Positions 354-61,937 of a stretch of DNA of 64,000 bases are shown here, piece by piece (position 1 is the stretch's first letter; every line of letters begins with the position of its first letter). The stretch is from Escherichia coli. Its GTDB lineage: Bacteria; Pseudomonadota; Gammaproteobacteria; Enterobacterales; Enterobacteriaceae. The notes below the pieces were generated by a model. It worked only from the letters and a program-made list of their open reading frames with translations. It was not told the DNA's origin and searched no databases. A program made the translations under genes and the position numbers. Where the stretch lies: NCBI RefSeq assembly GCF_024223415.1, contig NZ_CP100500.1, one strand, 5' to 3'.

Positions 354-3220
<2,867 letters not shown>

Positions 3221-3360
3221 CTATTATTTTAGCCACATTATTAGTAACAATGATAATCTGGCTGTATCGAAAATAATTCTAAACTTTCAGGAGATTTATT
3301 ATGAATAAACGTATCCTCACGATTGTGCCATTCTTCTTACCGATATTCTGACACATATCA

Positions 3361-4287
3361 TCAATTTTCGAGTTTTACTCTTTTCTCCACCATAAAATCA
3401 ATAAAAGCACGAACTTTAGAGGGCATTCTCACCCGTGATGAAACATAAATATAAAATCCAGGAAATGAAACAGCCCAATCCTCAAGAATCGGCTGTAACT
3501 TGCCCGCATTGATATGTTCAGCGATTGCAAAATCCAGATGTTGAATGATACCCGTTCCATTCAGCGCCATTCGTATCATGCTTTCGTCATCATTAGAAAT
3601 ATACTTACCTGAAACCTCTATTTCGAACTCTTCATTACCCCCCACAACATTAGAAAACTCCCATGCAGAGAGTGCACCGCTACTTTTATGCCGCAACCGA
3701 AGGCAATTATGGTTACTCAGTTCCTGAGGCGTTTCAGGAATACCGTGTTCTTTTAAATAATCTGGCGATGCCACAGTAACCAGTTTAATAAGCGGAGAAA
3801 CAGGAACGGCAGTCATATGCTCATCCAGTCCTTGCTCAAGACGTATGCCCACATCACAGCCGTCCGCAATAATGTTAGATAAACCGTCATCCATAATGAG
3901 TTCTATCTTTGTTTTGGGGTAACGAGTAAGAAACTCGCCAATATGAGGCTCAACAAGCATCCGTGCTGCAACACGGGAGGAATTTATTCTCAACAGGCCT
4001 GTAGGTTCAAGTTGGGTATCACCAACATCTTTCAAAGCATCATCAATTTGCCCCAAAGCCGACACCAGCACTTCATACAGACGCTGTCCTTCCTCAGTAA
4101 GCGACATATTGCGGGTCGTACGGTATATCAGCTTGGTGTTAAGACGTTCCTCAAGAGATTTTAAATTCTGGGACAATGCGGCCCGCGTAATACCCATTTC
4201 AGAAGCGGCTCTGGAAAAACTGCCGGCACGAACAATAAGCGCAAACCAGGCAAGAGAAGGCAAAATTGAAGGCTCTATTTTCATCAT
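3361..4287 (-). CDS. LysR-family transcriptional regulator
   Basis: 308-aa ORF with LysR helix-turn-helix and substrate-binding domain; divergent from the hydrolase gene at 4444. Confidence 0.85.
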   Translation of the reverse strand: MMKIEPSILPSLAWFALIVRAGSFSRAASEMGITRAALSQNLKSLEERLNTKLIYRTTRNMSLTEEGQRLYEVLVSALGQIDDALKDVGDTQLEPTGLLRINSSRVAARMLVEPHIGEFLTRYPKTKIELIMDDGLSNIIADGCDVGIRLEQGLDEHMTAVPVSPLIKLVTVASPDYLKEHGIPETPQELSNHNCLRLRHKSSGALSAWEFSNVVGGNEEFEIEVSGKYISNDDESMIRMALNGTGIIQHLDFAIAEHINAGKLQPILEDWAVSFPGFYIYVSSRVRMPSKVRAFIDFMVEKRVKLEN

Positions 4288-4443
4288 TGTAAACCTTAAC
4301 TTAACACTGTGATAGATATTAGATCATTGATGATAACCAATACAAGTCATACTATTACGCCGTTCTCGATATGAACACGAATGCCAGTTGCGGATAATAG
4401 AAATGATATTTAAATCTGTTTAGGCAAATCCCCGGAGCTTGAA

Positions 4444-5364
4444 ATGAAAACTGTTTCGATAAAACACACTTACTGGGATATAGCTGCTGATATCTATTTC
4501 CCTGACGATTTTAATAGTGAAAAAAAGTATCCTGCCATTATCAGCGCCCATCCAATTGGAAGCTGCAAAGAACAGACATCGGGTAGTGTGTATGGTGCCG
4601 CCCTGGCAAAAGCTGGCTTTATCGTCATTGCTTTTGATGCCAGTTTTCAGGGAAGCAGCGGTGGGGAACCGCGTTATCTGGAAGATCCAACAATGCGAGT
4701 AAAAGACTTCAGCATTGTCGTTGATTACCTTACCAGCTTACCTTACGTTGATGCCGGGCGTATTGGTGTACTGGGTATTTGTGGTGGAGGTGGATATGCC
4801 ATTAATGCCGCAATGACAGAACGTCGAATTAAAGCTATTGGTACTGTCACGGGTGCAAACTACGGGCGTCTTATGCGTGAGGGATTTACAGCGTTTAATC
4901 CTATCGGAGCACTCGAAGCAATGGCGCAACAAAGAACAGACGAAGCTAACGGCGCAAAACTTCGCGTAGATGATTTACTCCCCTCTTCTCCGGATGCAGC
5001 TCTTGAAGCGGGATTAACAGAAATAGACCTTTTTGAAGCCACAGAATATTATCGTTCGCCACGAGGCTGTGCACCTAATGGGGTAAATCGTTCGCTATTC
5101 TCACATCAGACTGTTGCCGTGGGTTGGGATGCATTTCATCTTGCAGAAGTGCTGTTAACTCAACCAATAATGGTTGTGGTGGGCGATAGAGTGGGCGCAT
5201 TTGGTGCCTACCGTGACGGCTGCGAAATTATTGGCCGCGCTGCCTCAAAACATAAAGAGCTGGTCGTGGTTGAAGGTTATTCACATTACGACCTGTATGA
5301 TAAGCCAGAACCTGTGAAACAGGCACTCGATAAATTAATTCCTTTTTATAAAACACATTTGTAA
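4444..5364 (+). CDS. alpha/beta hydrolase (dienelactone-hydrolase-like), no signal peptide
   Basis: 306-aa ORF with IGVLGICGGGGYAINAAM nucleophile-elbow region and KELVVVEGYSHYDLYD C-terminal motif; homologous to the ORF at 24130-25266. Confidence 0.8.
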   Translation: MKTVSIKHTYWDIAADIYFPDDFNSEKKYPAIISAHPIGSCKEQTSGSVYGAALAKAGFIVIAFDASFQGSSGGEPRYLEDPTMRVKDFSIVVDYLTSLPYVDAGRIGVLGICGGGGYAINAAMTERRIKAIGTVTGANYGRLMREGFTAFNPIGALEAMAQQRTDEANGAKLRVDDLLPSSPDAALEAGLTEIDLFEATEYYRSPRGCAPNGVNRSLFSHQTVAVGWDAFHLAEVLLTQPIMVVVGDRVGAFGAYRDGCEIIGRAASKHKELVVVEGYSHYDLYDKPEPVKQALDKLIPFYKTHL

Positions 5365-5607
5365 TAATCTTACAGGGAGATCCCTTATCTCCCTGACATT
5401 TATCCTTTATTGACTACACAACAATAATAAAATTACTCAAAAAGAAATTTCATTAAAAAACAAAAAAGCAGCAACTCAATTATTAAGATTATTAGAAACC
5501 CTTTAAAGGGATTATAAATAAAGCCAGAACTCTTGGTTCCAAAGCTGGCAACAACTAACCAGTTAAAACATACGCATCAAAATCAGATAAACATTTGAGG
5601 TATTGTT

Positions 5608-6750
5608 ATGACAAATAAACACCCATCATTGTTTTCTCCTTTTATGCTGACAGAAAAAATAAAGCTACGTAATCGTATCGTTATGGCTCCTATGACGACC
5701 TGGTCAGCGAATCCTGATGGAACCATCTCTGAGCAAGAACTCGAATTTTATAAACGTCGCTCACAAAATGTTGGTTTAGTAATAACAGGATGTACCTATG
5801 TCACGCCAAGCGGCATTGGGTTTACTCATGAATTTGCCGCGTATGACGACCGTTTCATTAACAGCCTTGAAAAGTTAGCAGCGGCAGCCAAAAGTGGGGG
5901 TGCTCCGGCTATTTTGCAGGTTTTCCACGCCGGTAATAAAGCCATCCCGGAGCTTGTACCAACTAACGATGTTATTAGTGCCAGCGCATCAAGCGTAAAA
6001 TCTGGTGACTTTATGAAGAGAGTGGTACAAAGCAGGGAAATGACTGAAAACGAAATTCAGGAAACCATTAGAGCATTCGGAGATGTCACAAAAAGGGCGA
6101 TTAAAGCAGGTTTTGATGGCATTGAACTTCATGGTGCGCACGGATTCCTTCTACAGAATTTCTTCTCCCCTCTATTTAACCAGCGTAATGACCGATGGGG
6201 AGGAGATCTCGAAGGACGTATGCGCTTCCCGCTGGCCGTATTACAGGAAGTAAAAAATGTAGTCTATGAATATGCGACAAAGCCCTTTGCCATCGGTTAC
6301 AGAATATCTCCTGAAGAATCTGCAACAGGGGGGCTGCGGATAGAGGATACTTATAAACTCCTTGATCGGCTCATTTCATCCGGTATTTCGTATATACATA
6401 CCTCGCTGGTCAGTATTAACGATAGCTACCCTGTTGAGTCGCCAAATGGCCCCCGAACTATTGAATTGATTTTAAATCATATTGCAGGCAGAGTGCCGGT
6501 AATCGCTGCAGGTAAAATACGCACACCGTCTCAGGCTCAAGAAGCAATTTCCACTGGCCTGCCACTTGTTGCGATCGGTAAAGGGCTGGTGATAAATCCA
6601 GAATGGGTGACTTTAGCTGAATCAGGTAGAGGCCATGAAATTCAAACAACCCTTAATCCACAACTTGTTCCTGAATTAACCATTCCGGATAAACTATGGG
6701 ATCAAATTCAGGCATCGAAAGGAACTGGCTGGTTTCCGTTAATGGATTAA
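5608..6750 (+). CDS. NADH:flavin oxidoreductase (Old Yellow Enzyme family)
   Basis: 380-aa ORF; LFSPFMLTEKIKLRNRIVMAPMTT N-terminus and HGAHGFLLQNFFSPLFNQRNDRWGG core are characteristic of the family. Confidence 0.85.
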   Translation: MTNKHPSLFSPFMLTEKIKLRNRIVMAPMTTWSANPDGTISEQELEFYKRRSQNVGLVITGCTYVTPSGIGFTHEFAAYDDRFINSLEKLAAAAKSGGAPAILQVFHAGNKAIPELVPTNDVISASASSVKSGDFMKRVVQSREMTENEIQETIRAFGDVTKRAIKAGFDGIELHGAHGFLLQNFFSPLFNQRNDRWGGDLEGRMRFPLAVLQEVKNVVYEYATKPFAIGYRISPEESATGGLRIEDTYKLLDRLISSGISYIHTSLVSINDSYPVESPNGPRTIELILNHIAGRVPVIAAGKIRTPSQAQEAISTGLPLVAIGKGLVINPEWVTLAESGRGHEIQTTLNPQLVPELTIPDKLWDQIQASKGTGWFPLMD

Positions 6751-7223
6751 ATATCTATTACTCTCCCGAGAGTAAAACTATCAAATCAATGAGTAACCGA
6801 TACAGCCTCACAAATTCTTTCAAATAATTAACCCGTCACTGCGGCACGTTCTCTCATAAGGCGTGCCTGCAGTGTAATCCAGTATGTATCCGGCTTAGTT
6901 GACGGTTTAATAGAGCTCAATTCCTCGCCCAGGTTACCAACAACGATATCTTGTATAACACCCCAGGAGATACGACATTATGATGAGATGCGATATGCTC
7001 CTCAGCGCCAATCAACGCCAGGACTGGGCCAGTCTTGAGATCAGACTCATTCCCGGAACTGACTTCAGGCGACATATATCAATGACGTTGGTGCAATAAA
7101 AGATAGCCGATGTAATACATCTATTCAAATTTGTGATACATGTCAAAAAATTGGTTGACCAAACTCGTTATTTATATAAGGGCACTTACGAAGTGCGCTC
7201 TTTTTTAAAGCGAGGAAGTACCA

Positions 7224-7325
7224 ATGAAAGAGAATAAAGTACAACAAATCAGTCATAAACTGATTAATATCGTTGTTTTTGTCGCAATTGTAGAATACGC
7301 CTATTTATTTCTCCATTTCTATTAA
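7224..7325 (+). CDS. ykgR: small hydrophobic protein, 33 aa (YkgR-like)
   Basis: ATG with GAGGAAG ribosome-binding site; encodes MKENKVQQISHKLINIVVFVAIVEYAYLFLHFY. Position upstream of ykgM matches K-12 as recalled. Confidence 0.55.
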   Translation: MKENKVQQISHKLINIVVFVAIVEYAYLFLHFY

Positions 7326-7648
7326 TAACGGCAATAAACTGTTCACTTCAGTGATATTTAAAATATGCATCCTCTCCCTTTTTGTAAGTAATTATTATAT
7401 CCGTGGGAGAGGAATACACGCTGTCAGGTAATCAATCATACTGCGATAAATCATCGGCCAGTAAAGTGGAGATAACCTCAATCCATACTCTCAGCGAAAC
7501 TATCATCAATCACTCATCCAGGCGTTTATGGGAGCGTCGCCAATGGCTGTTAACAATGCCAGACTTCCCCGTTGCGGAAATTCCACATACCACTAATGGT
7601 CACAGGGATTGGGTGTTGAAATGATCCGGATGAGCATGTATCTTTATG

Positions 7649-22682: not shown

Positions 22683-22741
22683 TCCTTGCGGCCGGGCGTG
22701 GAAAGCGCTTTCTCACCTGCGGGGGAAATACCATAAATTAA
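22661..22741 (+). pseudogene. truncated nucleotidyltransferase (MobA/MocA-like) stub, 26 codons
   Basis: ATG with GGAGGAGG ribosome-binding site overlapping the paoD 3' end; encodes MPAPVVLILAAGRGKRF..., the N-terminal nucleotide-binding motif of MobA-like transferases, then stops after 26 codons. Confidence 0.5.
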
Positions 22742-22860
22742 GAGAAAAATCTGCAGTAGCCGTTTTAGAAAATCACCTAAATCGTTTAAAAGAGCGCCCT
22801 ACCCATAGTGGTTGCTCATCGCCTTGTGTAACTTATTCAGCAACGCGCGCCCTCGCCGGA

Positions 22861-24054
22861 CTAAAGCGCACCGGCCTTCTGGCGTGCGGTAACAAAGGTC
22901 AGTACGCCCGCGCAAAGGAGCAGCACACTACTCATGGCAAACGTACTCTGCCAGCCAAGGCGGTCAAACACGATGCCTCCTGCCGTTGATCCAAGGGCGA
23001 TTGAGAGCTGAATCACCGCGACCATGAGCCCGCCTCCGGCTTCGGCGTTGTCAGGCAACGTACGCGCAATCCATGTCCACCATCCGGTTGGCGCGGCGGT
23101 GGCCAGCATGCCCCAGAGTCCTAACAGCAGCGAGACCGTCCAGACGTGATGCCCGGTAAGCATCAGACCGATGGCAATGACGGCCATCAGTCCGGGTATG
23201 GCCATCAGCGTGGGGTAGAATTTTCTGTTGAGAAATGTCGAAACAACCAGCGTGCCAATAAAACCGGCCACGCCGATAATCAGCAAAATCAACGACAAGC
23301 CTAAGGAATTAACCCGTGTCACCGACTCCAGAAATGGGCGCACATAGGTGAATAGCGCAAACTGCCCCATGAAAAACAGGCCACAAGCTATCATGCCGAC
23401 CACGACCATGCGGCGGCTAAATAAGCGGAATACCGCGCCAAATGACGCGTGGCTTTTATTCGCATCCATGCTGGGCAGACTAATACACTGCCAGATAAAG
23501 GCGACAACCGCGATAGGCACCAGGCACAAGAAAGCGCCTCGCCATCCGACCGTAGCCCCCAGATAGCTTCCCAGCGGTGCGGCCACGACCGTTGCCAGCG
23601 CATTACCGGCGTTGAAAATCGCCAGCGCACGCGTGACCTGATGCTGCGGCACCAGACGAATCGCCGTTGCCGCTGACATCGACCAGAATCCGCCAATGGC
23701 CACACCAATCATCGCACGACCGACCATATACATCAGATAATTGGAAGCCAGCGCAATAATAAGCCCCGATACGGCCATCAGAACCGTCATCCCCAGCAGC
23801 AGGAACTTACGATTCATCTTTCCAGCTAGCGTTGAAAGCGTCAGGCTGGTCAGAACCGCCAGCGCGCCGGAGATAGCAATCCCCTGCCCTGCAAGCCCCT
23901 CCGTCACGCCTAAATCGCGGGTAATCGGCGTGAGCAGGCTGACGGGCATAAATTCAGAAGCAATCAGCACAAACACGCACAGGGTCATGGCAAAAATACC
24001 GCCCCAGTATGCGCGCTGATGATGAGGTGATGGTGTTTGGCTTAGTGTCGACAT
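22861..24054 (-). CDS. MFS transporter (12 predicted helices)
   Basis: 397-aa hydrophobic ORF with major-facilitator-type loop motifs. Confidence 0.85.
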   Translation of the reverse strand: MSTLSQTPSPHHQRAYWGGIFAMTLCVFVLIASEFMPVSLLTPITRDLGVTEGLAGQGIAISGALAVLTSLTLSTLAGKMNRKFLLLGMTVLMAVSGLIIALASNYLMYMVGRAMIGVAIGGFWSMSAATAIRLVPQHQVTRALAIFNAGNALATVVAAPLGSYLGATVGWRGAFLCLVPIAVVAFIWQCISLPSMDANKSHASFGAVFRLFSRRMVVVGMIACGLFFMGQFALFTYVRPFLESVTRVNSLGLSLILLIIGVAGFIGTLVVSTFLNRKFYPTLMAIPGLMAVIAIGLMLTGHHVWTVSLLLGLWGMLATAAPTGWWTWIARTLPDNAEAGGGLMVAVIQLSIALGSTAGGIVFDRLGWQSTFAMSSVLLLCAGVLTFVTARQKAGAL

Positions 24055-24129
24055 AGTGAAATTTCACAAAGATCAGGATAAAAGCCACCAGCCTATGGCC
24101 GGTGGCTTTGCATCAATTCAGGAGAGGTT

Positions 24130-25266
24130 TTATTTCAGTTTGGTCTGGAAAAATTGTTCGAACTTTGCGAAAGGTATTTTTCCGGCCACGTTATCGTACA
24201 GGTCCACGTGATTTGCCCCTGGTACCACTACCAGCTCTTTGTCGTTACTGCCAACCGCCTTGTAAGCATCTTCAGCAAAATAGCGTGAATGCGCTTTCTC
24301 ACCGGTCACAATCAGCGTCGGGATGGTGATTTCACTGGCGTAGCTCAACAGCGGCATATTCATAAATGACAGCGGCATCGTTGCCGTCCACGCCCCGGTA
24401 GAGTTAACGGAACGTTCGTGGAAGCCGCGCGGCATGCGATAGTAGTCAAAGAACTCTTTCAGTACCGGATGAGGATTTGCCGGCAGCGTTTCTGGCAGAA
24501 TACGCTCGCCCGCACTGACCTTGCCGTTGCTATCGACATTAATATCATGACCACCGTGAGCGAACGTTCCGCTCTGCGCATCCTTCCAGCGCTGTTCATT
24601 CAGATATTGCAGAACAGCACGACGGTCGGCGGTAGAATAACGGTCTTCGCCATCCCCCACACCATGGCCCATCGCCCGGCTCATGTCATACATCACGCTG
24701 GTAGCAACCGCTTTAACGCGGGTATCCATCGCCGCGTCGTTCAGCGCCATGCCGCCCCAGCCACAAATACCGAGCAGCCCGATACGGTTGCGATCTACCT
24801 CTTTTTGCAGCCCTAAGAAATCCACCGCCGCGCTGAAATCTTCAGTGTTGATATCCGGTGAGGCGACGTTTCGCGGATAGCCGCCGCTTTCCCCGGTGTA
24901 AGAAGGATCGAACGCCAGGGTAACAAACCCTCGTTCCGACAGCGTCTGCGCATACAAGCCGCTGGATTGCTCTTTCACCGCGCCAAATGGCCCACTGACC
25001 GCAATCGCCGCCAGCTTGCGATCGCCACGGTCTTTAGGCAGGTAAAGATCGCCCACTAAGGTGATGCCATATCGGTTCGGGAACGATACTTTACGATGAT
25101 CGACTTTCTGGCTCTCGGCGAACGTTTTATCCCATTTATCTGTCATGGACACAGGGGCATTAGGATTGGTTGAATCAGCATAACTCATTGTCGTGACTCC
25201 ACTTAATGATGCGAAAAGCAGCATGGCCGGCATCGCGGTTTTTAGCGTTCGGGTGAAGGCTTTCAT
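24130..25266 (-). CDS. secreted alpha/beta hydrolase (dienelactone-hydrolase-like)
   Basis: Start at the ATG with GGGGA ribosome-binding site (MKAFTRTLKTAMPAMLLFASLSGVTTMSYA signal peptide); IGLLGICGWGG and KELVVVPGANHVDLYD motifs; homologous to the ORF at 4444-5364. Confidence 0.8.
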   Translation of the reverse strand: MKAFTRTLKTAMPAMLLFASLSGVTTMSYADSTNPNAPVSMTDKWDKTFAESQKVDHRKVSFPNRYGITLVGDLYLPKDRGDRKLAAIAVSGPFGAVKEQSSGLYAQTLSERGFVTLAFDPSYTGESGGYPRNVASPDINTEDFSAAVDFLGLQKEVDRNRIGLLGICGWGGMALNDAAMDTRVKAVATSVMYDMSRAMGHGVGDGEDRYSTADRRAVLQYLNEQRWKDAQSGTFAHGGHDINVDSNGKVSAGERILPETLPANPHPVLKEFFDYYRMPRGFHERSVNSTGAWTATMPLSFMNMPLLSYASEITIPTLIVTGEKAHSRYFAEDAYKAVGSNDKELVVVPGANHVDLYDNVAGKIPFAKFEQFFQTKLK

Positions 25267-25452
25267 AAAAATCCCCATAAAAAACAACAGAGAGATACAG
25301 GTTTCCGACGGACAACGCTGCGGTGCTTTACTTTGATGGGGTCATTATAGTGAGCAGAATTAGTGCTGATTAGGGGGCGATTAATGCTAAGATTAATACC
25401 ATATTGTTATAAATTAATGCGAAGATTGCCGGCATGAAGGGGGGATGTTTCA

Positions 25453-26337
25453 ATGGCGAAAAGGGAGAACTACAACGAGCTGTACCTGTTTATGCAGGTG
25501 GTGCGAGAAGGCAGCTTTACCGCAGCGGCTCAGCGGCTGGGTCTTGCTCAGTCAGGAGTCAGCCGTTCTGTTCGCGAGCTTGAAGAAAGGCTGGGCGTCC
25601 AGCTGCTGGTGCGCACCACGCGTAAACTGTCGCTGACGCAAGCAGGCGAGCAGCTCTACCAGAAGACGGCATCTGGATTTGAAATGTTAGATCTTGGGCT
25701 TGCCACGCTGGCGCACTATCGAGAGACGCCCTCCGGCACGGTGCGTATCAATGCCAGCCAGCACGCGATTGATAAATGCCTGCTGCCAAAGCTGGCGGTA
25801 TTTAAACAGCGATATCCTGATATCCGGCTTGAACTGATAAATGAGAGCCGGTTCGTCGATATCATCGAGGAAAGATTCGATGCAGGTGTCCGCCTGGGGC
25901 CTGAAGTCGGCCAGGGCATGGTCGCGGTACGCATCACGCCCGATATGGAGATGGCAATTGTGGGGACTCCGGAACATTTTCGTCGCTATGGTTTTCCGCA
26001 AACTCCGGCGGATTTAAAGGCGCATCCCTGTATCGCCTATCAGTTTGCCGACGGCAGCGTATACCAGTGGGAACTCAATCAGGATGATAAAAAAATCACT
26101 CATCGCCCTGAAGGGCAATGGGCCCTATCCGACAGCTATATGGAAGCAGAAGCCGCCCGGCTGGGCCTCGGATTGGCCTATGTTCCTGTTGAACTGGTCG
26201 CGGATGATTTAGAACACGGTAAGCTTATCAGAGTGTTGCAGCGTTACAGCCTGCGAATGGAGGGATTGTTTCTCTATTACCCTCATCGCAACGTCTCCCC
26301 CGCTCTGCGGATGGTCATTGATACATTGAAAATCTGA
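25453..26337 (+). CDS. LysR-family transcriptional regulator
   Basis: 294-aa ORF with LysR helix-turn-helix; divergent from the secreted hydrolase gene. Confidence 0.85.
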   Translation: MAKRENYNELYLFMQVVREGSFTAAAQRLGLAQSGVSRSVRELEERLGVQLLVRTTRKLSLTQAGEQLYQKTASGFEMLDLGLATLAHYRETPSGTVRINASQHAIDKCLLPKLAVFKQRYPDIRLELINESRFVDIIEERFDAGVRLGPEVGQGMVAVRITPDMEMAIVGTPEHFRRYGFPQTPADLKAHPCIAYQFADGSVYQWELNQDDKKITHRPEGQWALSDSYMEAEAARLGLGLAYVPVELVADDLEHGKLIRVLQRYSLRMEGLFLYYPHRNVSPALRMVIDTLKI

Positions 26338-26562
26338 ACGTTAACAACGACCGACTCTTCACTGTGCAATATTGTGTCAGGTAGTCACTCTGCGTTCAAT
26401 TCCAGGGGCCGCTTTGAGCGAGAAAGAGCGGACTTATCTGTACAAGGGGACTATCCAGCAATGGAGATCACCCAAAAGAAAAAACTACCTGGCTCCCTCA
26501 ACAACCTTCATCCGGGAATTTAGCCTCAATCAACATTTTTATATCTGTCAGGTTACTTCATT

Positions 26563-26836
26563 ATGAAAACCGATCAATATCGTTGTTTTTGTTGTAATAA
26601 TAGAATACGCGTATTTATTCCTCCATTTCTATTAATAACGGCCATAAACTGTTCACTTCACTGATATTTAAAATATGCATCCTTTTCCTGCTTTTCAAGT
26701 TGTTCAGCGGCGTAAGAAAACGTATTAAATATGAATTCGACGATTTAACCATTTCTGTCTGATTGGTAATCATCTGTGATTAATGCTGGTCTATTGATTA
26801 CGCCAGCATTAACCGCTTAGGGATGTATTCTTCCTG
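26563..26836 (+). repeat. degenerate copy of the ykgR region and the ykgO-downstream hairpin element
   Basis: 26576-26683 is about 93 percent identical to 7266-7373 (3' half of ykgR plus flank); 26734-26836 is about 75-80 percent identical by eye to 8087-8189. The ykgM-ykgO module between them in copy 1 is absent here. Confidence 0.7.
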
Positions 26837-27047
26837 ATCATATACAGCCCTCGAAAAAGAGAGAAAATAAAACTGTGTCCAATATTACTCTACCACTCCA
26901 GACCGAAGCATCGGTAGAATTAGCAGAACGACTGGTACAATAGATTGGGATAGCGTCATTTGTCAGGTATTCCATTGCCTGACAAATGACAATTTTGAGT
27001 CAATAGACGTGCTTCTTGATCATGTCTTAAAAATTATACCATGAGCC

Positions 27048-27326
27048 TTATGAAGCATCATTTTTACTGACTGGTGTTAACTTTGCTATCATATAAACTC
27101 TGTTCTTAAAAAACGCGCCCAGAATTTTATATGATTTCCCTTGTTTTTCTGCCTGTAAAGAAATTTCTTTTTCAGTGCTGTTAATGGTTGAACCGACGGC
27201 AGTAATCGTTTTGGCGACGCTACTGAATGATAATAAAGACAGTGCAACCACAACAATTAAAGAACAGATAGTATTCACGCTAATTCTCCTGACAATTGAG
27301 AGGATGAGTTTTATATATAAAGGCAT
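27048..27326 (-). CDS. small secreted protein, possibly DUF1471 (YhcN/BhsA-like)
   Basis: 92-aa ORF with hydrophobic leader (ICSLIVVVALSLLSFSSVA) and a short mature domain with KQGKSYKILG resembling DUF1471; start codon uncertain. Confidence 0.4.
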   Translation of the reverse strand: MPLYIKLILSIVRRISVNTICSLIVVVALSLLSFSSVAKTITAVGSTINSTEKEISLQAEKQGKSYKILGAFFKNRVYMIAKLTPVSKNDAS

Positions 27327-27491
27327 TAAACATGAGTCATGTTTACTTCCTGTGAAAATAATCTTTCTGTAATTAAACCTTCATCTCCTTCGGGGTGAGC
27401 AATACATAATGCATCTTGCTATGAAAAACACAGGGATATATAAATCTTCCTTCTGACCTATTTAATAAAACGTGAATGTAAAAGTTATTCT

Positions 27492-28214
27492 TCAGTTTGC
27501 AGATGCAGTGGGTCTGATGGTAATTTCGGTTGTATCAACGCTTTCGGGAGATTCAATAATATGCCTTACCGCACGGGCAATATCCGCAGGTTGAAGTGCA
27601 ACAGAACGGTAGGCGTCCATTGCCTTCATGGTTTCCATATGGGTAATTGTTGAAGCCAGTTCACTTTCGACAACGCCAGGATTTACGCAGGTCACACGGA
27701 TTTTCGAGCTTTCCTGCCGTAAGCCATCAGAAATAGCCCGTACTGCAAATTTGGATGCACAATAGACTGCGCCTGTGGGCACAACAGAAAGGGCACCAAT
27801 AGAACCAAGATTGATTATCTGACCGGAACCCTGTGCTTCCATCACCGGAAGTACAGCGCCAATTCCCCACAGTACACCTTTGATATTCACGTCAATAGTG
27901 AGCTCCCATTCATCTTGTTTTCCTGCTGCAAGCGGTGAAAGCGGCATAACGCCCGCATTATTGATAAGAACATCAACTCGCCCCCAGCTATCCAGCGCTG
28001 CTTGCACGAAATCGGCCATGGACTGTCGGTCTGTGACATCCAACTCCCGCGCTTTAGCAATTCCTCCTGCGCGGCAAATTTCGGTTGCAATGGCTTCGAT
28101 ACGCTCAACTCTGCGTGCTCCCAGTAAAACCTTTGCACCTGTCATTCCAAGCTCTCTGGCAATACCTTCCCCAATACCACTTGATGCGCCGGTAATTAAT
28201 ATGACCTTATCCAT
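27492..28214 (-). CDS. short-chain dehydrogenase/reductase
   Basis: Start at the ATG with AAGGAG ribosome-binding site (MDKVILITGASSGIGEG Rossmann motif); YCASK catalytic motif present. Confidence 0.85.
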   Translation of the reverse strand: MDKVILITGASSGIGEGIARELGMTGAKVLLGARRVERIEAIATEICRAGGIAKARELDVTDRQSMADFVQAALDSWGRVDVLINNAGVMPLSPLAAGKQDEWELTIDVNIKGVLWGIGAVLPVMEAQGSGQIINLGSIGALSVVPTGAVYCASKFAVRAISDGLRQESSKIRVTCVNPGVVESELASTITHMETMKAMDAYRSVALQPADIARAVRHIIESPESVDTTEITIRPTASAN

Positions 28215-28312
28215 TACGTTCTCCTTCAAATGTGTTCGGAGAGAGAATAGAACTTTATGATTGGTTCCAGTATCCTGCTTTCAATGTACTCAGTGGTTAG
28301 CGGCATTAAACA

Positions 28313-29212
28313 ATGAAAATCGATCTTAATCTTTTACCCATTTTTATCGCGGTAGCAGAAGAGAGTAATTTTAGTAAAGCCGCCGCACGGCTGGGCGTTA
28401 CCCGTTCAGCGGTCAGTCAGGGAATAAGACGCCTTGAAGATGCATTCGGGACAATGCTTGTAATGCGGACCACGCGCTCAGTTAATTTGACAGAAGCGGG
28501 AGAACGGCTGCATAAATCGCTGTCATTACCTTTATCCGGTATTGAGACAGCGTTCGAAGAGATGGTTTCTGACCATGTGCCACGCGGACTTCTCAGAATC
28601 GCGGTGAGGTCGATAGCAGAAGAATTTCTTTCAGGTCCGCTAATCGCTTCGTTTGCAGCTGCCAATCCAGCCGTTACGCTTGATATTGTTGTAACGGATG
28701 AGGAATTCGATATCGTGGCCGCAGGTTACGATGCTGGCGTAAGGCTCGGAGAGGTCATTGAAAAAGACATGATTGCTGTGCCCCTTACCGGCAGGCAGCG
28801 TGAAATGGTCGTTGCCTCTCCCTCCTATCTCGCAGCCAACAGCACACCTGTTCATCCGCGTGAACTTGTGAATCATAAGTGTATCGGCTGGCGTCAATCC
28901 CCGGATGTTGCGCCTTATCGCTGGCCATTTGAAGAAAACGGGAGAGTTTTCGACCTTGCGATTGAACCGCAGATTACGACTAATGATCTGCGTCTGATGT
29001 TGAGGCTGGCTCTTGCCGGCGGAGGAATAACAATTGCCACTCAGGAAACTTTCAGGCCATATATTGAAAGCGGTAAGCTTGTATCTCTGCTTGATGACTT
29101 TCTTCCACAATTTCCGGGCTTCTATCTGTATTTCCCACAGCGTCGCAATATTGCACCAAAGCTCCGCGCCCTGATTGACCACGTCAAGGAATGGCGGCAG
29201 CAATTGGCTTAA
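28313..29212 (+). CDS. LysR-family transcriptional regulator
   Basis: 299-aa ORF with LysR helix-turn-helix; divergent from the SDR gene. Confidence 0.85.
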   Translation: MKIDLNLLPIFIAVAEESNFSKAAARLGVTRSAVSQGIRRLEDAFGTMLVMRTTRSVNLTEAGERLHKSLSLPLSGIETAFEEMVSDHVPRGLLRIAVRSIAEEFLSGPLIASFAAANPAVTLDIVVTDEEFDIVAAGYDAGVRLGEVIEKDMIAVPLTGRQREMVVASPSYLAANSTPVHPRELVNHKCIGWRQSPDVAPYRWPFEENGRVFDLAIEPQITTNDLRLMLRLALAGGGITIATQETFRPYIESGKLVSLLDDFLPQFPGFYLYFPQRRNIAPKLRALIDHVKEWRQQLA

Positions 29213-33737: not shown

Positions 33738-34982
33738 TTAACACAAACGTTTTTCGATCCATTCTGTGATTTCCTGAAGACCTTTGTCAAAATTCCGATA
33801 CACCGGGTTAAATGGGATCTCTAATAATTTACCGTCAGCAGATGATGAGGTGATTAAGCGTGAGTCCTCTTCCGGGCTGAACGGATCGTTCTTCCAGTAG
33901 CCTGATAACATTGGCGTTGGGCAGCGACGTCCCAGCAATCCTTGCACTTTTAATGAATAGCGATTCAGCTCCACGCGCAACGCTTCGTCGGAAGCATCAT
34001 GCATCCCCAAACGACTGGCCAGAACGTCAAGATACATTTCCGGCACCTGTTGCTGGCACTTAAAATCACTCAACAGGGTATGAACTACCGGACCAAGACA
34101 GGCAACCGCTTTCAGACGCGGCGATTCAAGGTATGCCAGACGCACGGCAACGTTAGCGCCGAAACGGAAACCAAAGGCCGCGACGCGAGTGTGATCCACC
34201 CACGGTACGTTAGGCAGTGCCTTTAAGACGTGCTGATGCAACAGGCTGGAGTCCTGGGTGAGCTTCCATTTTGAAGAAAAGCCCACCGACGGCATATCAA
34301 TAGTCAGCATCGCAATGCCGCGCGGCGCAAAATAACGTTCATACAGGCTGTAATAGTCCGTCTGCATCGCATCCAGACCACCACACATTAATACCGTCGG
34401 GAACGGGCCATCGCCTTTCGGCATATGCAAAAAGCCGGTGATGGGCGCACCGCCGGGTACGGTAAACTCCATCTGCCGCATCGTGCCCGGTAGACGCTGA
34501 GCGGCCTCTTCATAGGCGCGGTTTGACAAAGCCTGCGCTTGCTCGGCCAGGTCATCTCCTTTCAGATGAGGATAGGCGGCAATGTTGTACAACGTAGCCG
34601 CATGCAGCCAGTGACGACCACTGAGTTGCGGATCTTCTTCCGCACAGGCTTTTTGTTGCCACACCATCGCCTGGGTGGCCCACTCATAAATCCAGTTGCC
34701 GCCACGGTAGCCAATCACCGTATCGTATAAATCATCGTCGGTACGTTCAGCATCGCTCATCACAATACGTGCCTGGACGTCGAGGATTTCACGTGGGTCA
34801 ATGCCGCGCCAGATCCACATCAGACGGTTAATCATGCGATACCAGTGAGGGATGGTTTTACCATCAAGGGCCGACTGCACAGGCGGTTGTGCGCCGTGAT
34901 TAAAGCGGCGGACTAGCGTCGAGGTTTCAGGATGTTTAAAGCGGGGTTTGAACAGGGTTTCGCTCAGGTTTGCCTGTGTCAT
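33738..34982 (-). CDS. frsA: fermentation/respiration switch esterase
   Basis: 414-aa alpha/beta-hydrolase ORF in the conserved position between crl and gpt. Confidence 0.9.
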
Positions 34983-50653: not shown

Positions 50654-51421
50654 GTGCCTGGTTTGAAGATTACGCTTTTGCAGCAACCACTGGTGTGGAT
50701 GGATGGCCCTGCCAACCTGCGTCATTTTGATCGTCAACTGGAAGGTATTACCGGGCGCGATGTGATCGTTCTACCGGAGATGTTTACCAGCGGCTTTGCC
50801 ATGGAAGCGGCTGCTTCGTCGCTAGCACAAGATGACGTAGTGAACTGGATGACAGCCAAAGCGCAGCAGTGCAATGCGCTGATTGCAGGCAGTGTTGCAT
50901 TACAAACGGAGTCTGGTTCGGTTAACCGCTTTTTGCTGGTTGAGCCGGGCGGCACGGTACATTTTTATGATAAGCGTCATCTGTTCCGCATGGCAGATGA
51001 GCATCTGCATTATAAAGCGGGCAATGCGCGAGAGATTGTGGAATGGCGCGGCTGGCGTATTTTGCCGTTGGTGTGCTACGACTTACGTTTTCCGGTGTGG
51101 TCGCGCAATCTCAACGATTATGACCTCGCCATCTACGTTGCCAACTGGCCTGCTCCGCGCTCTCTGCACTGGCAGGCATTGCTGACGGCCCGCGCGATTG
51201 AGAATCAGGCGTATGTGGCGGGATGCAATCGCGTCGGCAGCGATGGCAACGGCTGCCATTATCGCGGTGACAGCCGGGTGATTAATCCACAGGGCGAGAT
51301 TATCGCTACTGCCGACGCGCATCAGGCAACGCGCATTGATGCGGAGCTGTCGATGGCGGTGTTAAGGGAATATCGCGATAAGTTTCCGGCATGGCGGGAT
51401 GCGGATGAGTTTAGGTTGTAG
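50654..51421 (+). CDS. yafV: nitrilase-family omega-amidase
   Basis: Carbon-nitrogen hydrolase family ORF; start taken at GTG 50654 ([11 protein letters not shown]...), preceded by an AAGGAG ribosome-binding site. Confidence 0.85.
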
Positions 51422-51479
51422 TGAGTGGGTGTTGTGTTTAGGGCTGGGGAGAGTCGGGGAAGACTACGAAAGCCCGCTC

Positions 51480-51849
51480 TCCTGCGACCACTTTTATCAT
51501 AGGAGTGTGGAAGTGCTTTTCCATCAATCGCGATGACGTCTTTGTCATTTGATGAATGGCAGTCACGCATCCAGTTAATAAAGCACTCGTGAAATTTTGC
51601 AGGACTGATACAGGATACAACTCTGGCAATGGTATCGTGAACAGGGATACCATTTTCAAAATCACCATATTGTTTTAAAAAATCGAGATGTGTTTCCCCA
51701 AAATCCTCTATATCTTCCCAACCTTCTACACCAGAAATAACGGCACAAATAGTCAACAGAAGAATATCTGACAATTTATGTTCCACTTTCCAGGCTTGAC
51801 TGTAATCGGGAATAATAGAAATATGTTCCATCAATTTTTTAAGTTCCAT
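51480..51849 (-). mobile_element. H-repeat (ISAs1-family) transposase N-terminal fragment
   Basis: N-terminal ~120 residues ([40 protein letters not shown]...) match H-repeat-associated proteins; similarity is lost after about residue 123 and the ORF runs into the yafV 3' end. Has its own AAGGAG ribosome-binding site. Confidence 0.7.
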
Positions 51850-52152
51850 TTTTTCTCCTTATTTATGTAAGGAGTATTTGATCATGTATAAGCAATAAAA
51901 AACAGCTTCAGGTAATGAGGAATATCTCAATTTTTAAACATAAAATGCGAATTATTTAGTATAAAAAGTGTACTTCTGATGATCTTTCCCTGGATTTACA
52001 TTAGGTTGGTTATTTTCCATACCCACAACTATATTTTCTCTCTGAATTTAATACGTGCAAGACAATCGCAGCACTCTAACTGACTTCGATGTGATTTGAT
52101 GTTCAGAAAAATCCCTCATTAGATTATTATCATGAAATACAGCCAATTATCT

Positions 52153-53103
52153 TTAGTTTTTATATTTCTCAATATATTCTTTTGAAAGGATTCGCGCCTT
52201 TTCAAACTCTTCAGGAGTTAATCTATTTTCCATCTTCAATTTATATTGAACACTTTTATCAAGTCCATGAGCGTATGCGGCACTGAACCAGGCATATGCC
52301 TTTTTATTATCGAGTGGTAACTCTTTCGTGCCTACGGAATAGATTAATGCAAGATTATGTTGTGCAACAGGATCACCATGTGTGGCTGACTTTCTTAACA
52401 GTTCTATTGCTTTATATTTATTTACAGTAATCCCACCCAGTCCTTCATAGTAAAAGATACTTAGTGCTGATTGTGCTTTTATGAAACCTTGACTTGCCGA
52501 TTTATCATACCAAAAGGCGGCTTTATTATAATCCTTTTTAATAATAACGCCTTCATAATAGAGTCGCCCTAAATGATACTGAGCAACCTTATCCCCTTGC
52601 TCCGCAGCGATACGATACCACTTATCTGCCAGATCTTTTTTATTAGTCTCATCATATAGTAAAGCAAGGTTAGTTTGAGCCGTAACTAATCCAGAATTTG
52701 CAGCTTTATTTAACCACGCTATGGCCTTACCATAATCTCTTATCACGCCACTCCCTTTACTATATAATACTCCTAAGTTTCCCTGCGCTTCTGGAAAACC
52801 TTTTTCAGCTGCCATTTGATAACATTCAAATGCTTTTTCATAATTTTGAGACACCCCATAACCATGAGCATACATAACACCGAGGTTATACTGAGCCTCT
52901 GTCAGCCCCTGTTTTGCTGCAAGCGAGTACCAATATACTGCATCTTTATAACTCTGGATTCCTTCAGAACCACTTCGATATAACTCCGCGAGTTTAAATT
53001 GCGCAGTAGCATCTCCCTTATCAGCATCTTTTCTTATATATGTCATTTTATTGGAGGCTGCTGTGTCTTCTGTCACCCCAATTGCAACAGGAATACTCAA
53101 CAC
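52153..53103 (-). CDS. Sel1-repeat (TPR-like) protein; candidate immunity protein for the upstream Rhs toxin
   Basis: About eight tandem ~36-aa Sel1-type repeats (AQxNLGxxYxxGxGVxxDYxKAxxWYxKAA). Low GC, 45 bp downstream of the Rhs stop. Start codon uncertain (GTG at 53103 or internal ATG). Confidence 0.8.
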   Translation of the reverse strand: MLSIPVAIGVTEDTAASNKMTYIRKDADKGDATAQFKLAELYRSGSEGIQSYKDAVYWYSLAAKQGLTEAQYNLGVMYAHGYGVSQNYEKAFECYQMAAEKGFPEAQGNLGVLYSKGSGVIRDYGKAIAWLNKAANSGLVTAQTNLALLYDETNKKDLADKWYRIAAEQGDKVAQYHLGRLYYEGVIIKKDYNKAAFWYDKSASQGFIKAQSALSIFYYEGLGGITVNKYKAIELLRKSATHGDPVAQHNLALIYSVGTKELPLDNKKAYAWFSAAYAHGLDKSVQYKLKMENRLTPEEFEKARILSKEYIEKYKN

Positions 53104-53147
53104 TTCAAAAAAAAAACATCACAACAACACACATTAATATTTTTCGA

Positions 53148-56100
53148 TTATTTTTTATCGGCATCTTTTTTATCATCACCTTTAAATTTATCTACCGCTT
53201 CACTAGAAGTCATGTCAGTAATATAATCTCCAAATGCATTTTCAGGCACAAAGGGCAATTTACCCAAAGTTGCACCTAATAATTCCTCCGCTCCTGTATC
53301 AGCAGCAGCATAAACACCAGATTTAAAATCCCCTCCCTTACTTAAAAATGACAATCCCATTTTCAAAGCTATTTTCTCAACAAACGTTTTTCCCGCTCCC
53401 CAAGAACCACCTAAAGCACATAGCGCCAACTCGGATTTATCCGGCATCTTATGATCAGACATATAGTCAGTCGTAGCAACCGCACCACATGAACTAAGAC
53501 TTCCAATTGCTATCTCCCCCCATGTAAGAGTCCCCCCTTCTAATGCAGCCGCACTTGCTACTGGCTCGGTAAATACTACTCCGGCAATAACAGGAGGCAG
53601 TAAAGCCCATCCTTTTACATAATCGTCTAATGGATTATACACTCCACGCATACTTGAAAAATCATCCAACGCTTTAAATTTTTCTTCATCTGACAGGTTC
53701 GGGGCGAATCCAACATTAGCCCCCTGCATAGTGTTATAATAATTAGTTCCAAATATCATTTGCGGCGTTACATTAGCTAACCCCAACGGATCTATATGTT
53801 CAATAGGATTGAGTGGGTACTGGTAAGGATTTAATCCTCCTTCCAGCCCAATCGGGTCCTGGGTGATATACCGTCCCTGCAACGGGTCATAGTACCGGTG
53901 ACGGTTGTAATACAGCCCCGACTCCTCATCATACTGCTGTCCCGGCAGACGGTACGGCTGTTGCAGGTGCTGCGCGCTGGTTTCGCCCAGCAGGTTTCCC
54001 CACTCGTCATACTCCCCCTGCCACGCCGTTTCCCCTTCCGGGCTGATGAGCGCCTGCGGCAGTCCCCGGTGGTCGCAGTGGTAAAGATGAAGTTTCCGCT
54101 CCGGGATGTATTCCGCCTCCAGCTGCGCGGCCATCTGCTCCGCCGTCAGCCCGCACTGCGCAAGCCATGCCTCACTCTCCGCACTCACCGCTCCCGCGCG
54201 CAGTTCCCGCTCCAGCCTCCCCAGCATCACCGACAGCTCCGCCGGTAGCGTCACACCCGTGTCCTCTTGCAACACCTCCGCCAGGCTCCGGTGCCGCGCC
54301 TTCGCCTGTTCGCCATTCTCTGTTTCGATTCTCAGGAGCGGCGTGAAGCTCCCCGGCTGGTATACCGTCTGGATACGCGTGGTGCCGGTCTGTATCGTCG
54401 TCAGCCTGTCGCCGTCCCACCCGTACCATGTCACCTCCGGTTTACGCGACAACGACATCCACCCCGTCAGGTCACGCTCCCGCCGCCATACCCGTTTTCC
54501 CGTCCGGCGGCCCAGCGGGTCATAGAGGTAACGGCTCTCCACCTGTGGTTCGCCGTGCTGTATCCGCGTGTAGAACACCAGGCGGTGCTGGCTGTCGTAG
54601 TGGTAGTGGTGGGTCCGCTCGTCGTGCATCCGGATAACCCCTTCCGGGATGCGGTCCGTCTTCTCCGCCAGCCTGCCGTATTCATCGTGGCGGTAGACAT
54701 AGTGCGCATCTTCCGCGATGCGGTTATCCGGCCACGCCGTGAGCGTGCTGTCCGGGTGCAGTTCCGGGTCCGGCAGCCGGTTTCCCGCCGGGTCTGTTGC
54801 ATACGGGATATCGATATCCAGGTTCGCCGCCGTGGTGTGGACGCCCGTCAGCCTTCCCGTGTCACTGTAACGGTACTCCCGGCTCTCCTGCGGGCCGCTG
54901 ATGCGGATTAGCTGTCCGTTGTCGTTCCAGTCGTAGTCACGGTCAAGCTGCGGGAGGTTCAGGTGCCTGCTCCGGAGCTGGCCGCTGGTATTCCAGGCGG
55001 TGGCAAGTTCATATGCCTCCCCGCCGAAGCTGCGGGCCGTCTCACGGTGCAGCCGGTCCCGCGTGTACTCGACCAGTGGCGTTCCGCCCAGCTTCATCCC
55101 CGCAAGATAACCGCTGCCATACGTCAGCCACTCTACCGGCGGCAGACCGTCCGGCTCCTGACGGGTCGCCAGTCCCTGTTCGCTGTACGCGTGCCCCGTC
55201 TCATGCTCCCACAGCATCTCCCCCGTCTCCGGGTTCTCCACCGTCTGCCGTTCGCCCGTCAGGCGGCCTTTATCGTCATAGCCGTAGTGGACCGCCACAC
55301 GGTGGCCTTCACTGGTATGGCTGATGGTGGTTAACCACCCGTGCTCATCATACTGCCACTGCTCCGCCGGGTCGCCGTTCACCGTCCGGTGCGTGATGCG
55401 GTCCGACGCATCGTAATGCCAGAGGGTGATAAGTCCCTCATCTTCACTCTGCGTGAGTTTTCCGGTCAGGTCATAGTGGTAACGTTGCGTCCGCCCGTCA
55501 AAACCGCGCTGTTCAGTCAGCCTGTCCACCGGGTCATACCGGAACGTGGACTGGCTGCCGTTCTCGTTGGTCAGCACGGTGATGCGCCCGGCAGCGTCAT
55601 ACCCCATGCTGCGCGTAAGACCGCCTTCCGTCACACTCACCGGACGCCCGCGTTTATCATATTCGATGGTGCTGCATTTACCGTCCGGTGATATCGTTGC
55701 TGTCAGGTCGCCTGCGGCGCTGTACTCATAACGGATTTCACGCCCCTGCGCATCCTTCTGACTGACCAGTTGCCCACGCGGGTTATAACTGCTGTAAGTG
55801 CTGATGCCTTCTTCCCGGTGAACGGCGATTTGTTGACCGTACCGGTCGTACTCATACCGCGTCGTGTACCCCGAGCAGTCCGTAAAGGCCAGCAGTTGAC
55901 CGTAACGGCTCCATGCCATCTGTTTTGTACTGCCCGTCGCATCCTCTATCCCTGTCGGCAGCTCACTCGCCGGGTCATCATAGCTGTAACTCGTCGTCTC
56001 ACCGCTGCGTGAGGTCTCCGCCGCCAGCCTTCCCTTCTCATCATACTCCCGGCTGCTGCGAAGCCCGTCCGGGTACGTCACCGACGTCACCTGCCGCTGG

Positions 56101-57536: not shown

Positions 57537-57611
57537 GAATCAATTCCTTCTGCTTTTAATATGGTTTATCTGGTCACTGCACCAGTTCCGTTTTGATTTT
57601 TTGCACCTGAC

Positions 57612-59753: not shown

Positions 59754-59962
59754 AGCAACCTCCGGGGTTAAGGAAAAACAGACAGTTCACTGTTAAAGCG
59801 GCTGTGACAGTACAGTGTTACGCTTGCGTTCAGGCACGCTACCGCCGAAGTTTCCGGCAGCCGCCATCTCCCGTGAACGTAACCCCTTACTGACAACCTT
59901 TCTTTCTACGGCGTAATACAAAAACAGCATCCGGCCTGATAGCCGGATGCTGTTGGCTTAAC

Positions 59963-60481
59963 TTATGCTTCCAGCGGTGCGCGCCAGTCGTCGGCACCGG
60001 AGGTGCCAGATTTGACGTGTTCCCATTCAATTTTGCGGTAGGCCAGTGAAACTTCGAGCAACTGGGTGAACTCGCGTTTCGCCGGGTCCTGGCAATGCGG
60101 CATATGCAGTTTCATATCGACAATCGTCGAATCAGTCAGGCGGGTAGTGAAATAATGCTCCTGTTTGCCTTCCACAGAGGTACGCCACCAGTGAAGTTCA
60201 GTGGTTGGCAGCATTTCGCCGGAGGCCAGTGCGTTGTACATCAGCGGAACCGCTTTGTTCAGCGCCACGGTAAAAATGAAAGGCTTGTGAGCACGCTGAC
60301 CCGCAGGCTGACCGGACTGAGGATCGGTCGGGACAGTAACGTTATGCAGGAATTCCTGCACCAGCATCTCGTCTTCGTGCCCCTGCACATAGATGTTGCC
60401 GACAGAATCAGCGGTAAATGCACCTGCAGTAATATTTCCCTGGGTCTGACCAGTGATGGAGATATAACACGGTGTTGGCAT
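59963..60481 (-). CDS. hcp: type VI secretion tube protein Hcp
   Basis: 172-aa ORF recognised as Hcp from the translation; directly upstream of vgrG. Confidence 0.9.
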   Translation of the reverse strand: MPTPCYISITGQTQGNITAGAFTADSVGNIYVQGHEDEMLVQEFLHNVTVPTDPQSGQPAGQRAHKPFIFTVALNKAVPLMYNALASGEMLPTTELHWWRTSVEGKQEHYFTTRLTDSTIVDMKLHMPHCQDPAKREFTQLLEVSLAYRKIEWEHVKSGTSGADDWRAPLEA

Positions 60482-61678: not shown

Positions 61679-61712
61679 CCACCACTATTTCATTAAACAG
61701 GGTTATCCAGGC

Positions 61713-61937
61713 ATGACGGCACACAAAAATATCTCCGGGACATACCACCTCTCTGTTGCAGACATTCTGCAGGTGGTTTACCAGGTATGTTTCAGCCCGT
61801 CCGTTGAAATCAACCAGGATGGTGTGGCTGCGCTGATTACAACACTGGATCGCCGTATCAGTGATCTATTGGATGAGATTATCCATTTTTGTGAGTTTCA
61901 GCAGAGCGCGTCGCACTGGCAGCGCGTACTTCACTGA
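61713..61937 (+). pseudogene. diverged TssC-like internal fragment (74 codons)
   Basis: VAALITTLDRRISDLLDEIIHFCEFQQSASHWQRVL aligns with residues ~65-100 of the downstream TssC (VDSMIADIDERISRQMDVIIHAPAFQQVESFWRSL); different frame, diverged at DNA level. Confidence 0.45.

Follow-up and report, generated by a model that had tools for sequence, protein, structure and literature searches.

Two LysR-hydrolase units in one genome region

Within a 64,000-nucleotide stretch of the Escherichia coli contig NZ_CP100500.1 (assembly GCF_024223415.1; the whole stretch is called the window below), two alpha/beta-hydrolase genes each lie back to back with a gene for a LysR-type regulator, and the question raised by this locus is whether the two pairs are copies of one module. 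A preliminary description of this DNA had read them as an old duplication with compartment specialisation, with one hydrolase cytoplasmic and the other secreted. Our analysis favours another answer with good confidence: the pairs belong to two operon-like units that were inherited or acquired independently of each other, each combining an anciently diverged Cys-elbow hydrolase of the YcjY/PA2218 family with its own, non-orthologous LysR regulator. The finding is one of ordinary gene-family content; it is neither a duplicated module nor a new kind of system.

The divergent layout of hydrolase and regulator was confirmed in both units. Unit 1 occupies positions 3361-6750, with Hyd1 divergent from LysR1 and followed by an Old Yellow Enzyme (OYE) gene; unit 2 occupies positions 22861-26337, directly after paoD, and ends in a major facilitator superfamily (MFS) gene separated from Hyd2 by 76 bp. 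The genes of the two units are as follows.

3361..4287, minus strand: LysR1, LysR-type regulator of unit 1, 308 aa (Pfam HTH_1 and LysR_substrate)
4444..5364, plus strand: Hyd1, cytoplasmic-type YcjY-family alpha/beta-hydrolase, 306 aa, with Cys113 at the elbow and a conserved His281; GGAG lies 7 nt ahead of the ATG
5608..6750, plus strand: OYE-type NADH:flavin oxidoreductase, 380 aa, third gene of unit 1 (Pfam Oxidored_FMN, E 1e-76)
22861..24054, minus strand: MFS transporter downstream of Hyd2, NepI/SotB-like, under the NepI cut-off; the RefSeq start gives a shorter gene (1128 nt)
24130..25266, minus strand: Hyd2, exported-type PA2218-like hydrolase, 378-aa precursor
25453..26337, plus strand: LysR2, LysR-type regulator of unit 2, 294 aa (Pfam HTH_1 and LysR_substrate)

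Relationship of the two hydrolases

Hyd1 and Hyd2 align across their full catalytic domains with 32% identity (E 3e-43), which marks them as true paralogues of one family, and every motif quoted as shared in the preliminary description is present in both proteins. A resemblance confined to the generic alpha/beta-hydrolase fold might be suggested by Pfam, which returns weak, overlapping matches to many generic alpha/beta families. However, this explanation is refuted by the alignment itself, by the match of Hyd1 to YcjY (5XB6; E 1.5e-66, residues 12-304) and by that of Hyd2 to PA2218 (2HDW; E 2e-124, 419 bits, near full length), and its probability is negligible. Both proteins have the fold of the YcjY/PA2218 family and are nearer to its members than to other alpha/beta hydrolases. 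We therefore assign them, from sequence, to the COG1073-type family of YcjY (PDB 5XB6) and PA2218 (PDB 2HDW), which comprises 836 clusters at 50% identity (E<=1e-30).

Hyd1, Hyd2 and YcjY all carry the G-I/V-C-x-G elbow, the His in GxxHxDLYD, KEQ, D65, R128, R164 and YY202-203. Among 92 full-length family representatives, Cys is found at the nucleophile elbow (G-I-C-x-G) in 83 and His281 in 84; KEQ (K/E/Q 89-91), D65, S72, R128 (91), R164 and Y202-Y203 are near-invariant. More distant characterised relatives have Ser, not Cys, at the elbow.

To place the two enzymes within the family, a neighbor-joining tree of 92 representatives at 50% identity was built with 100 bootstraps. Its deepest split, recovered in 96 of them, separates Hyd2 from Hyd1 and YcjY. 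The Hyd2 side holds 30 sequences, mostly with N-terminal extensions that contain export signals, whereas members of the Hyd1/YcjY side mostly have no extensions. In the bootstraps the path from Hyd1 to Hyd2 was never shorter than that from Hyd1 to YcjY. Exact recovery of hand-defined inner clades was poor (5-55 of 100 bootstraps), and only the deep split is claimed.

Compared with its counterpart in the window, each hydrolase is far more similar to proteins of other phyla. Relatives of Hyd1 at 75-82% identity occur in Burkholderia, Cupriavidus, Pseudomonas, Stenotrophomonas, Mycobacterium and Propionispora, those of the Burkholderiales reaching about 80%, and relatives of Hyd2 at 85-95% identity are spread across Enterobacterales. 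Of the four family members in E. coli, Hyd1 and Hyd2 form the most distant pair, and within the species the paralogue most similar to Hyd1 is not Hyd2 but the 310-aa hydrolase encoded after ycjY (62% identity). The two enzymes are thus very distant paralogues on two ancient branches and not products of a local duplication. What stands of the earlier proposal is that they are paralogues of the same family, one cytoplasmic-type and one exported-type; specialisation in this lineage is not supported, since the deep split makes the cytoplasmic/exported difference, as far as the sequences tell, a property of the two ancient branches.

Regulators and their candidate operators

LysR1 and LysR2 both match PF00126 and PF03466 well over the cut-offs and are bona fide LysR-type transcriptional regulators. 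With 29% identity (150 bits), they form one of the lowest-scoring of the ten pairings among five E. coli LysR proteins. LysR2 is closer to another LysR protein encoded at 2267-3202 (42%) and to PgrR (41%), the regulator encoded next to ycjY in strain K-12; the 2267-3202 protein and PgrR share 46%, and LysR1 and PgrR 31%. Neither LysR1 nor LysR2 is an orthologue of PgrR by these values, true orthologues scoring 380-580 bits, and LysR2 shares only a CTAATCA element (see below) with PgrR-type regulation.

A neighbor-joining tree of 38 LysR proteins (200 bootstraps), with partners taken from 79 family genome loci, gave three separate groups. The LysR1-type clade (177 of 200 bootstraps) includes orthologue-like regulators, scoring 349-384 bits, that are divergent from Hyd1-type hydrolases in Burkholderia, Stenotrophomonas, Myxococcus and Rudaea. 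A PgrR-type clade was recovered in 194 bootstraps, and LysR2 forms a third branch (198 of 200) with its Dickeya orthologue, a 294-aa protein divergent from the Dickeya hydrolase. A grouping of LysR1 with LysR2 appeared in none of the 200, and LysR proteins without a hydrolase link fall between them. Judged from alignment and phylogeny, LysR1 and LysR2 were not co-duplicated; they are essentially unrelated as a pair, an outcome that the preliminary description had itself named as evidence against duplication.

Comparison of orthologous intergenic regions and direct reading of the sequence yielded the following candidate control elements.

4288..4306, plus strand: candidate LysR1 operator TGTAAACCTTAACTTAACA (TGTAA-N8-TTAAC), directly adjoining the start codon of LysR1; putative binding site from intergenic comparison
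4327..4355, plus strand: candidate Hyd1 promoter TTGATG-N17-TACTAT, read from the sequence
4323-4334: dyad ATCAT-TG-ATGAT over the candidate Hyd1 promoter, read from the sequence
25340..25375, minus strand: candidate Hyd2 promoter/activator site CCCTAATCAGCAC ... TATAAT (CTAATCA-N17-TATAAT), of putative function

TGTAA-N7/8-TTACA-like dyads lie at the same position in most other LysR1-type intergenic regions (L009, L023, L025, L032); they are weaker in L010, L004, L016 and L011 and not evident in L019 and L044. The element upstream of Hyd2 reads CTAATCA-N17-TAyAAT in unit 2 and its Dickeya orthologue, and the K-12 pgrR-ycjY intergenic region has the same layout, TCTAATCA-N17-TATAGT. The PgrR-type candidate operator is ATCAC-N5-GTGAT plus GTCTAATCA. 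The candidate operators of the two units therefore differ (TGTAA-N8-TTAAC versus CTAATCA-N17-TATAAT). Consensus scans for sigma-70 promoters and terminators were uninformative, giving no more matches than in shuffles; the promoter scan did not call the candidate Hyd1 promoter, and its matches there were no commoner than chance. A search of single intergenic regions for T-N11-A palindromes gave nothing useful, and the comparison of orthologous regions was needed.

Origin and distribution of the units

The third-codon-position GC content (GC3) of LysR1, Hyd1 and OYE is 0.34-0.38, versus 0.59-0.65 for MFS, Hyd2 and LysR2. A locus of Escherichia albertii (L009) shares exactly window positions 3375-6765 (85% identity) in another context and nothing on either side, so that unit 1 can be regarded as a discrete three-gene, low-GC cassette of 3.4 kb. 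The LysR-hydrolase-MFS arrangement of unit 2 is conserved in Enterobacterales. Both GC3 and the limits of the cassette point to separate origins for the two units. Across 5426 complete E. coli genomes, the Hyd1 gene is present in 2118 (39%) and the Hyd2 gene in 939 (17%), and the two vary independently; the ycjY-adjacent paralogue is found in 1269 (23%). K-12 MG1655 lacks window positions 355-6658 and 22737-28873, segments of roughly 6 kb each that hold both units, and its pseudogene ykgP is a 3' remnant of the OYE gene. K-12 has thus lost three of the four E. coli family members, namely those of both window units and the ycjY-adjacent paralogue.

These data bear directly on whole-module duplication, in which one LysR-hydrolase pair was doubled, one copy gained a signal peptide and both diverged. 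The hydrolases are indeed real paralogues, both regulators fall in a broad YafC-like subgroup (each 192 bits to NF040888), and pairing with LysR recurs in the proteobacterial part of the family, at 18 of the 28 loci most similar to Hyd1. However, LysR1 and LysR2 are among the most distant of the five LysR proteins, never form a joint clade and have regulators without a hydrolase link between them; the operator motifs differ, the GC3 gap is about 0.25, and each hydrolase has its closest relatives elsewhere. Moreover, three of the four LysR genes in the window are divergent from an enzyme gene, which makes divergent pairing a default and not a signature. We consider duplication of the module highly improbable, and the claim that the two pairs are copies of one module is not upheld.

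Export of Hyd2

The preliminary description had also assigned a signal peptide to the second hydrolase and none to the first, and this agrees with our results: Hyd1 starts directly at its domain, whereas the N-terminus of Hyd2 is signal-peptide-like.

25177-25266, minus strand: predicted Hyd2 signal peptide, residues 1-30

Read from the ATG at 25266, Hyd2 opens with MKAFTRTLKTAMPAMLLFASLSGVTTMSYA|DS, that is, with a basic n-region (K2, R6, K9), a hydrophobic core (AMPAMLLFASLSGV) and S-Y-A before the likely cleavage site (S-Y-A|D). These Sec-type features are kept in the Klebsiella, Yersinia and Dickeya orthologues.

An alternative is that Hyd2 is not exported and starts at Met34 (ATG 25167-25165), both enzymes then being cytoplasmic. 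This start is used by the RefSeq coding sequence (1059 nt, WP_122987247.1) and by several 352-aa database entries (P0060, P0066, P0073, P0076), and GGAG lies 8 nt upstream of it. Against it, the upstream ATG is preceded at 5 nt by the Shine-Dalgarno sequence GGGGA, the dominant Hyd2 cluster (P0001), with 1998 member sequences, consists of the 378-aa form, and 378 aa is also the length of almost every orthologue at 84-95% identity. Between E. coli and Dickeya, the reading frame of the first 33 codons is preserved along with the charge pattern, the hydrophobic core and MSYA, even though 50 of 99 nucleotides differ. Furthermore, Hyd2-type proteins of five phyla have Sec, twin-arginine translocation (TAT) or lipoprotein signals ahead of a WDKTF motif. 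On the strength of the dominant cluster, the 33 codons conserved in frame and the signals in distant homologues, the long form is the probable correct start, and a cytoplasmic Hyd2 seems unlikely. Public records of this gene (window 24130-25287) are inconsistent, with start sites that give 352, 364, 375, 378, 382 and 385 aa.

Gene neighborhoods of family members

In the 28 Hyd1-like loci, besides the 18 divergent LysR genes, a tandem YcjY-type paralogue is present in about 17 and a YmjC-type NAD(P)H-binding short-chain dehydrogenase/reductase (SDR; PF13460) in 11. YcjY-type and Hyd1-type genes are adjacent and often overlap, by 1 nt, in L014, L016, L018-L022, L024, L026-L028, L033, L034 and L056, and such tandems occur in Alpha-, Beta- and Gammaproteobacteria, Bacteroidota and Streptomyces. 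This arrangement suggests that the two proteins work together, possibly as a hetero-oligomer.

The K-12 operon pgrR (ycjZ) | ycjY-ymjD-ymjC-mpaA retains traces of the same organization. The 22-aa ymjD corresponds to the first 18 codons of a Hyd1-type second hydrolase (L002, K-12 1390680-1390933), and ymjC to the N-terminus of an NAD_binding_10 SDR. Since both are remnants, the ancestral operon was pgrR | ycjY - hydrolase - SDR - mpaA, an order that is intact in E. coli A30 (L090) and persists in 1269 of the 5426 E. coli genomes. A derivation of ymjC from an OYE gene was considered and rejected, as OYE has no match in the K-12 ycjY region and ymjC is the SDR N-terminus. In unit 1, the OYE flavoenzyme sits after the hydrolase at the place where the SDR lies in other loci.

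Hyd2-type hydrolases are linked to both MFS and LysR genes in Corallococcus, in Bosea and, together with an additional Cyclophil_like2 gene, in Dickeya, and to MFS alone in Pseudomonas sp. M47T1; in Microvirga, MFS and LysR genes lie a few kb off. The Cyclophil_like2 (PF18050) gene adjoins Hyd2-type hydrolases in Dickeya (L089, 6234-6743) and in a metagenome contig (L088, 4576-4998), and is absent from E. coli unit 2. It is the only neighbor noted for the PA2218-like metagenome representative P0261, whose context contains no LysR or MFS gene. In Gastranaerophilales, cytoplasmic-type and exported-type members stand in tandem in L045, L049, L050 and L055 and about 1.5 kb apart in L051.

Comparison with known systems

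With respect to the K-12 pgrR|ycjY system, the window units differ in that LysR1 has only 31% identity to PgrR and a different operator, neither unit is linked to mpaA, ycjG or mppA, and Hyd2 is of the exported type. The ycjY-adjacent hydrolase of E. coli A30 and its YmjC-type SDR (WP_000680618.1 / WP_000800184.1), the former being the paralogue with 62% identity to Hyd1, resemble unit 1 in that a LysR protein controls the hydrolase, which is of the cytoplasmic type, and an NAD(P)H-dependent reductase gene comes next. Unlike Hyd1, this hydrolase is encoded after YcjY in a tandem regulated by PgrR, and it is paired with an NAD_binding_10 SDR and not with OYE. PA2218 of Pseudomonas aeruginosa, known from the structural-genomics entry 2HDW, is the closest solved relative of Hyd2; the match includes the WDKTF N-terminal segment, and both have the same GICGWGG elbow. 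Its neighbors are presumably opdE (MFS) and a LysR gene.

Dienelactone hydrolases (DLH, PF01738; Cys-His-Asp) have the alpha/beta fold, Cys nucleophile and G-x-C-x-G elbow also seen in the window hydrolases. Hyd1 matches the DLH profile with 25.0 bits (cut-off 21), only at profile positions 12-123 of 217, the N-terminal half, and Hyd2 does not match this profile. The hydrolase-reductase pairing is reminiscent of DLH with maleylacetate reductase. The best NCBIfam match of both hydrolases is the UilS N-acyl homoserine lactone (AHL) lactonase NF047920. Membership of the UilS family was rejected at 74.6 and 65.9 bits (Hyd1 and Hyd2) versus a cut-off of 400, with only the N-terminal ~130 residues aligning, and the similarity is a lead, not membership. 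UilS of Serratia is a quorum-quenching AHL lactonase of alpha/beta fold with the RAST label dienelactone hydrolase (PMC11633161). The fungal trans-acting thioesterase-like hydrolases DcsB (7D78) and GrgF (6LZH) have 18-22% identity to the window hydrolases; they are eukaryotic secondary-metabolite enzymes that act on carrier-bound polyketides, and no such genes lie near the window units. For GrgF, the literature search yielded nothing of relevance.

Proposed function

The literature searched names a substrate for none of the YcjY/PA2218 proteins; it mentions YcjY and PA2218 solely in screens and lists, and it contained no paper on structure 5XB6. YcjY is known as a PgrR target (PMC5934670), and its over-expression leads to filamentation (PMC3614548).

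In the mechanism that we propose, a small-molecule inducer would allow each LysR protein to activate its divergent promoter. With Cys113 as nucleophile and His281 as base, the hydrolase would form a thioester acyl-enzyme and cleave a small anionic molecule at an ester, lactone, thioester or amide bond; a carboxylate is suggested by the invariant Arg and Tyr residues. The NAD(P)H-dependent OYE flavin reductase of unit 1 may also reduce this substrate or its product in the cytoplasm. In unit 2, hydrolysis would occur in the periplasm, and the MFS protein may move either the substrate or the product through the inner membrane.

The two units could also be halves of a single pathway, with periplasmic cleavage by Hyd2, uptake by MFS and cytoplasmic processing by Hyd1 and OYE. 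The tandems of cytoplasmic-type and exported-type members in Gastranaerophilales are consistent with this possibility, and the shared near-invariant KEQ, R128, R164 and YY suggest related substrates. However, Hyd1 and Hyd2 are present independently in E. coli genomes, the two genes are 19 kb apart with different regulators, operators and origins, and the cytoplasmic/exported pairing occurs in no examined locus outside Gastranaerophilales. We therefore regard this scheme as very unlikely.

A broader and speculative proposal, to which we assign a low probability, is that YcjY/PA2218 proteins are a widespread class of Cys-nucleophile hydrolases that serve a single conserved pathway for small molecules. 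At the core of this pathway would stand a LysR-controlled operon encoding a YcjY-type hydrolase, a Hyd1-type hydrolase and a YmjC-type reductase, with an exported PA2218-type branch coupled to MFS. The window units would then be its cytoplasmic and its periplasmic arm, both handling one class of compound (e.g. a lactone or ester from a host or plant, or a peptide from the cell wall, the last of these because of hints from the PgrR link).

Several points weigh against our preferred reading of two separate units with the functions sketched above. The trees are neighbor-joining trees on representatives at 50% identity, with low support for several inner clades. LysR2, PgrR and the LysR protein at 2267-3202 are moderately related (41-46%), and an ancient duplication of a LysR-hydrolase module may have occurred for unit 2 and pgrR|ycjY, not for units 1 and 2; the former are the better candidates because the CTAATCA-N17 promoter element is common to both. 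The canonical position of the triad acid, residue 248, is variable (E in 29, S in 26 and D in 19 of the 92 representatives), so that a classical Cys-His-Asp triad is not established. RefSeq starts Hyd2 of NCTC10444 at Met34 (352 aa), which removes the signal peptide, and the signal-peptide calls are heuristic. The gap between Hyd1 and OYE is 243 bp, so co-transcription may or may not hold, and chemistry, inducers and transporter direction are inferred from sequence.

The value of these results lies mainly in annotation. Accessory E. coli genes labelled generically as "alpha/beta hydrolase" and "LysR family" can be placed in and around the YcjY/PA2218 family, a probable start-site error that hides the Hyd2 signal peptide is corrected, and the conserved operon of two hydrolases and a reductase is a place to seek the substrate of the family.

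Other features of the window

The window is chromosomal, and according to the RefSeq annotation of NCTC10444 the region corresponds to fdeC - ykgR - ecp - pao - thrW - proAB. Window positions 2200-7000 are 100% identical to E. coli O78 strain 3, NCTC10444 and NCTC9112. Two further LysR genes complete the four in the window. That at 2267-3202, whose product is the closest relative of PgrR in the window, is convergent with an aldo/keto reductase pair (region 1247-3202). The other, at 28313-29212, is divergent from an SDR oxidoreductase gene (27492-28229) and lies just before the tRNA-Thr gene thrW, the CP4-6 integration site in K-12; K-12 yagP is a 3' remnant of this gene, not of LysR2.

Another COG1073-type alpha/beta-hydrolase in the window, frsA (33738-34982), has marginal similarity to Hyd2 (E 3e-5) and none of significance to Hyd1. 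The segment from about 51000 to 64000, unrelated to the hydrolase units, contains genes for an Rhs core protein, VgrG and Hcp, the type VI secretion genes tssB/C/E/F and an ISAs1 fragment. Finally, the two units and their surroundings share no DNA-level similarity except an unrelated, ykgR-derived 123-bp direct repeat (90% identity) at 7257-7379 and 26567-26689. It covers the 3' portion of ykgR together with adjoining downstream sequence; its second copy, annotated by RefSeq as a ykgR pseudogene fragment, lies just downstream of LysR2, and the repeat may mark an old rearrangement.

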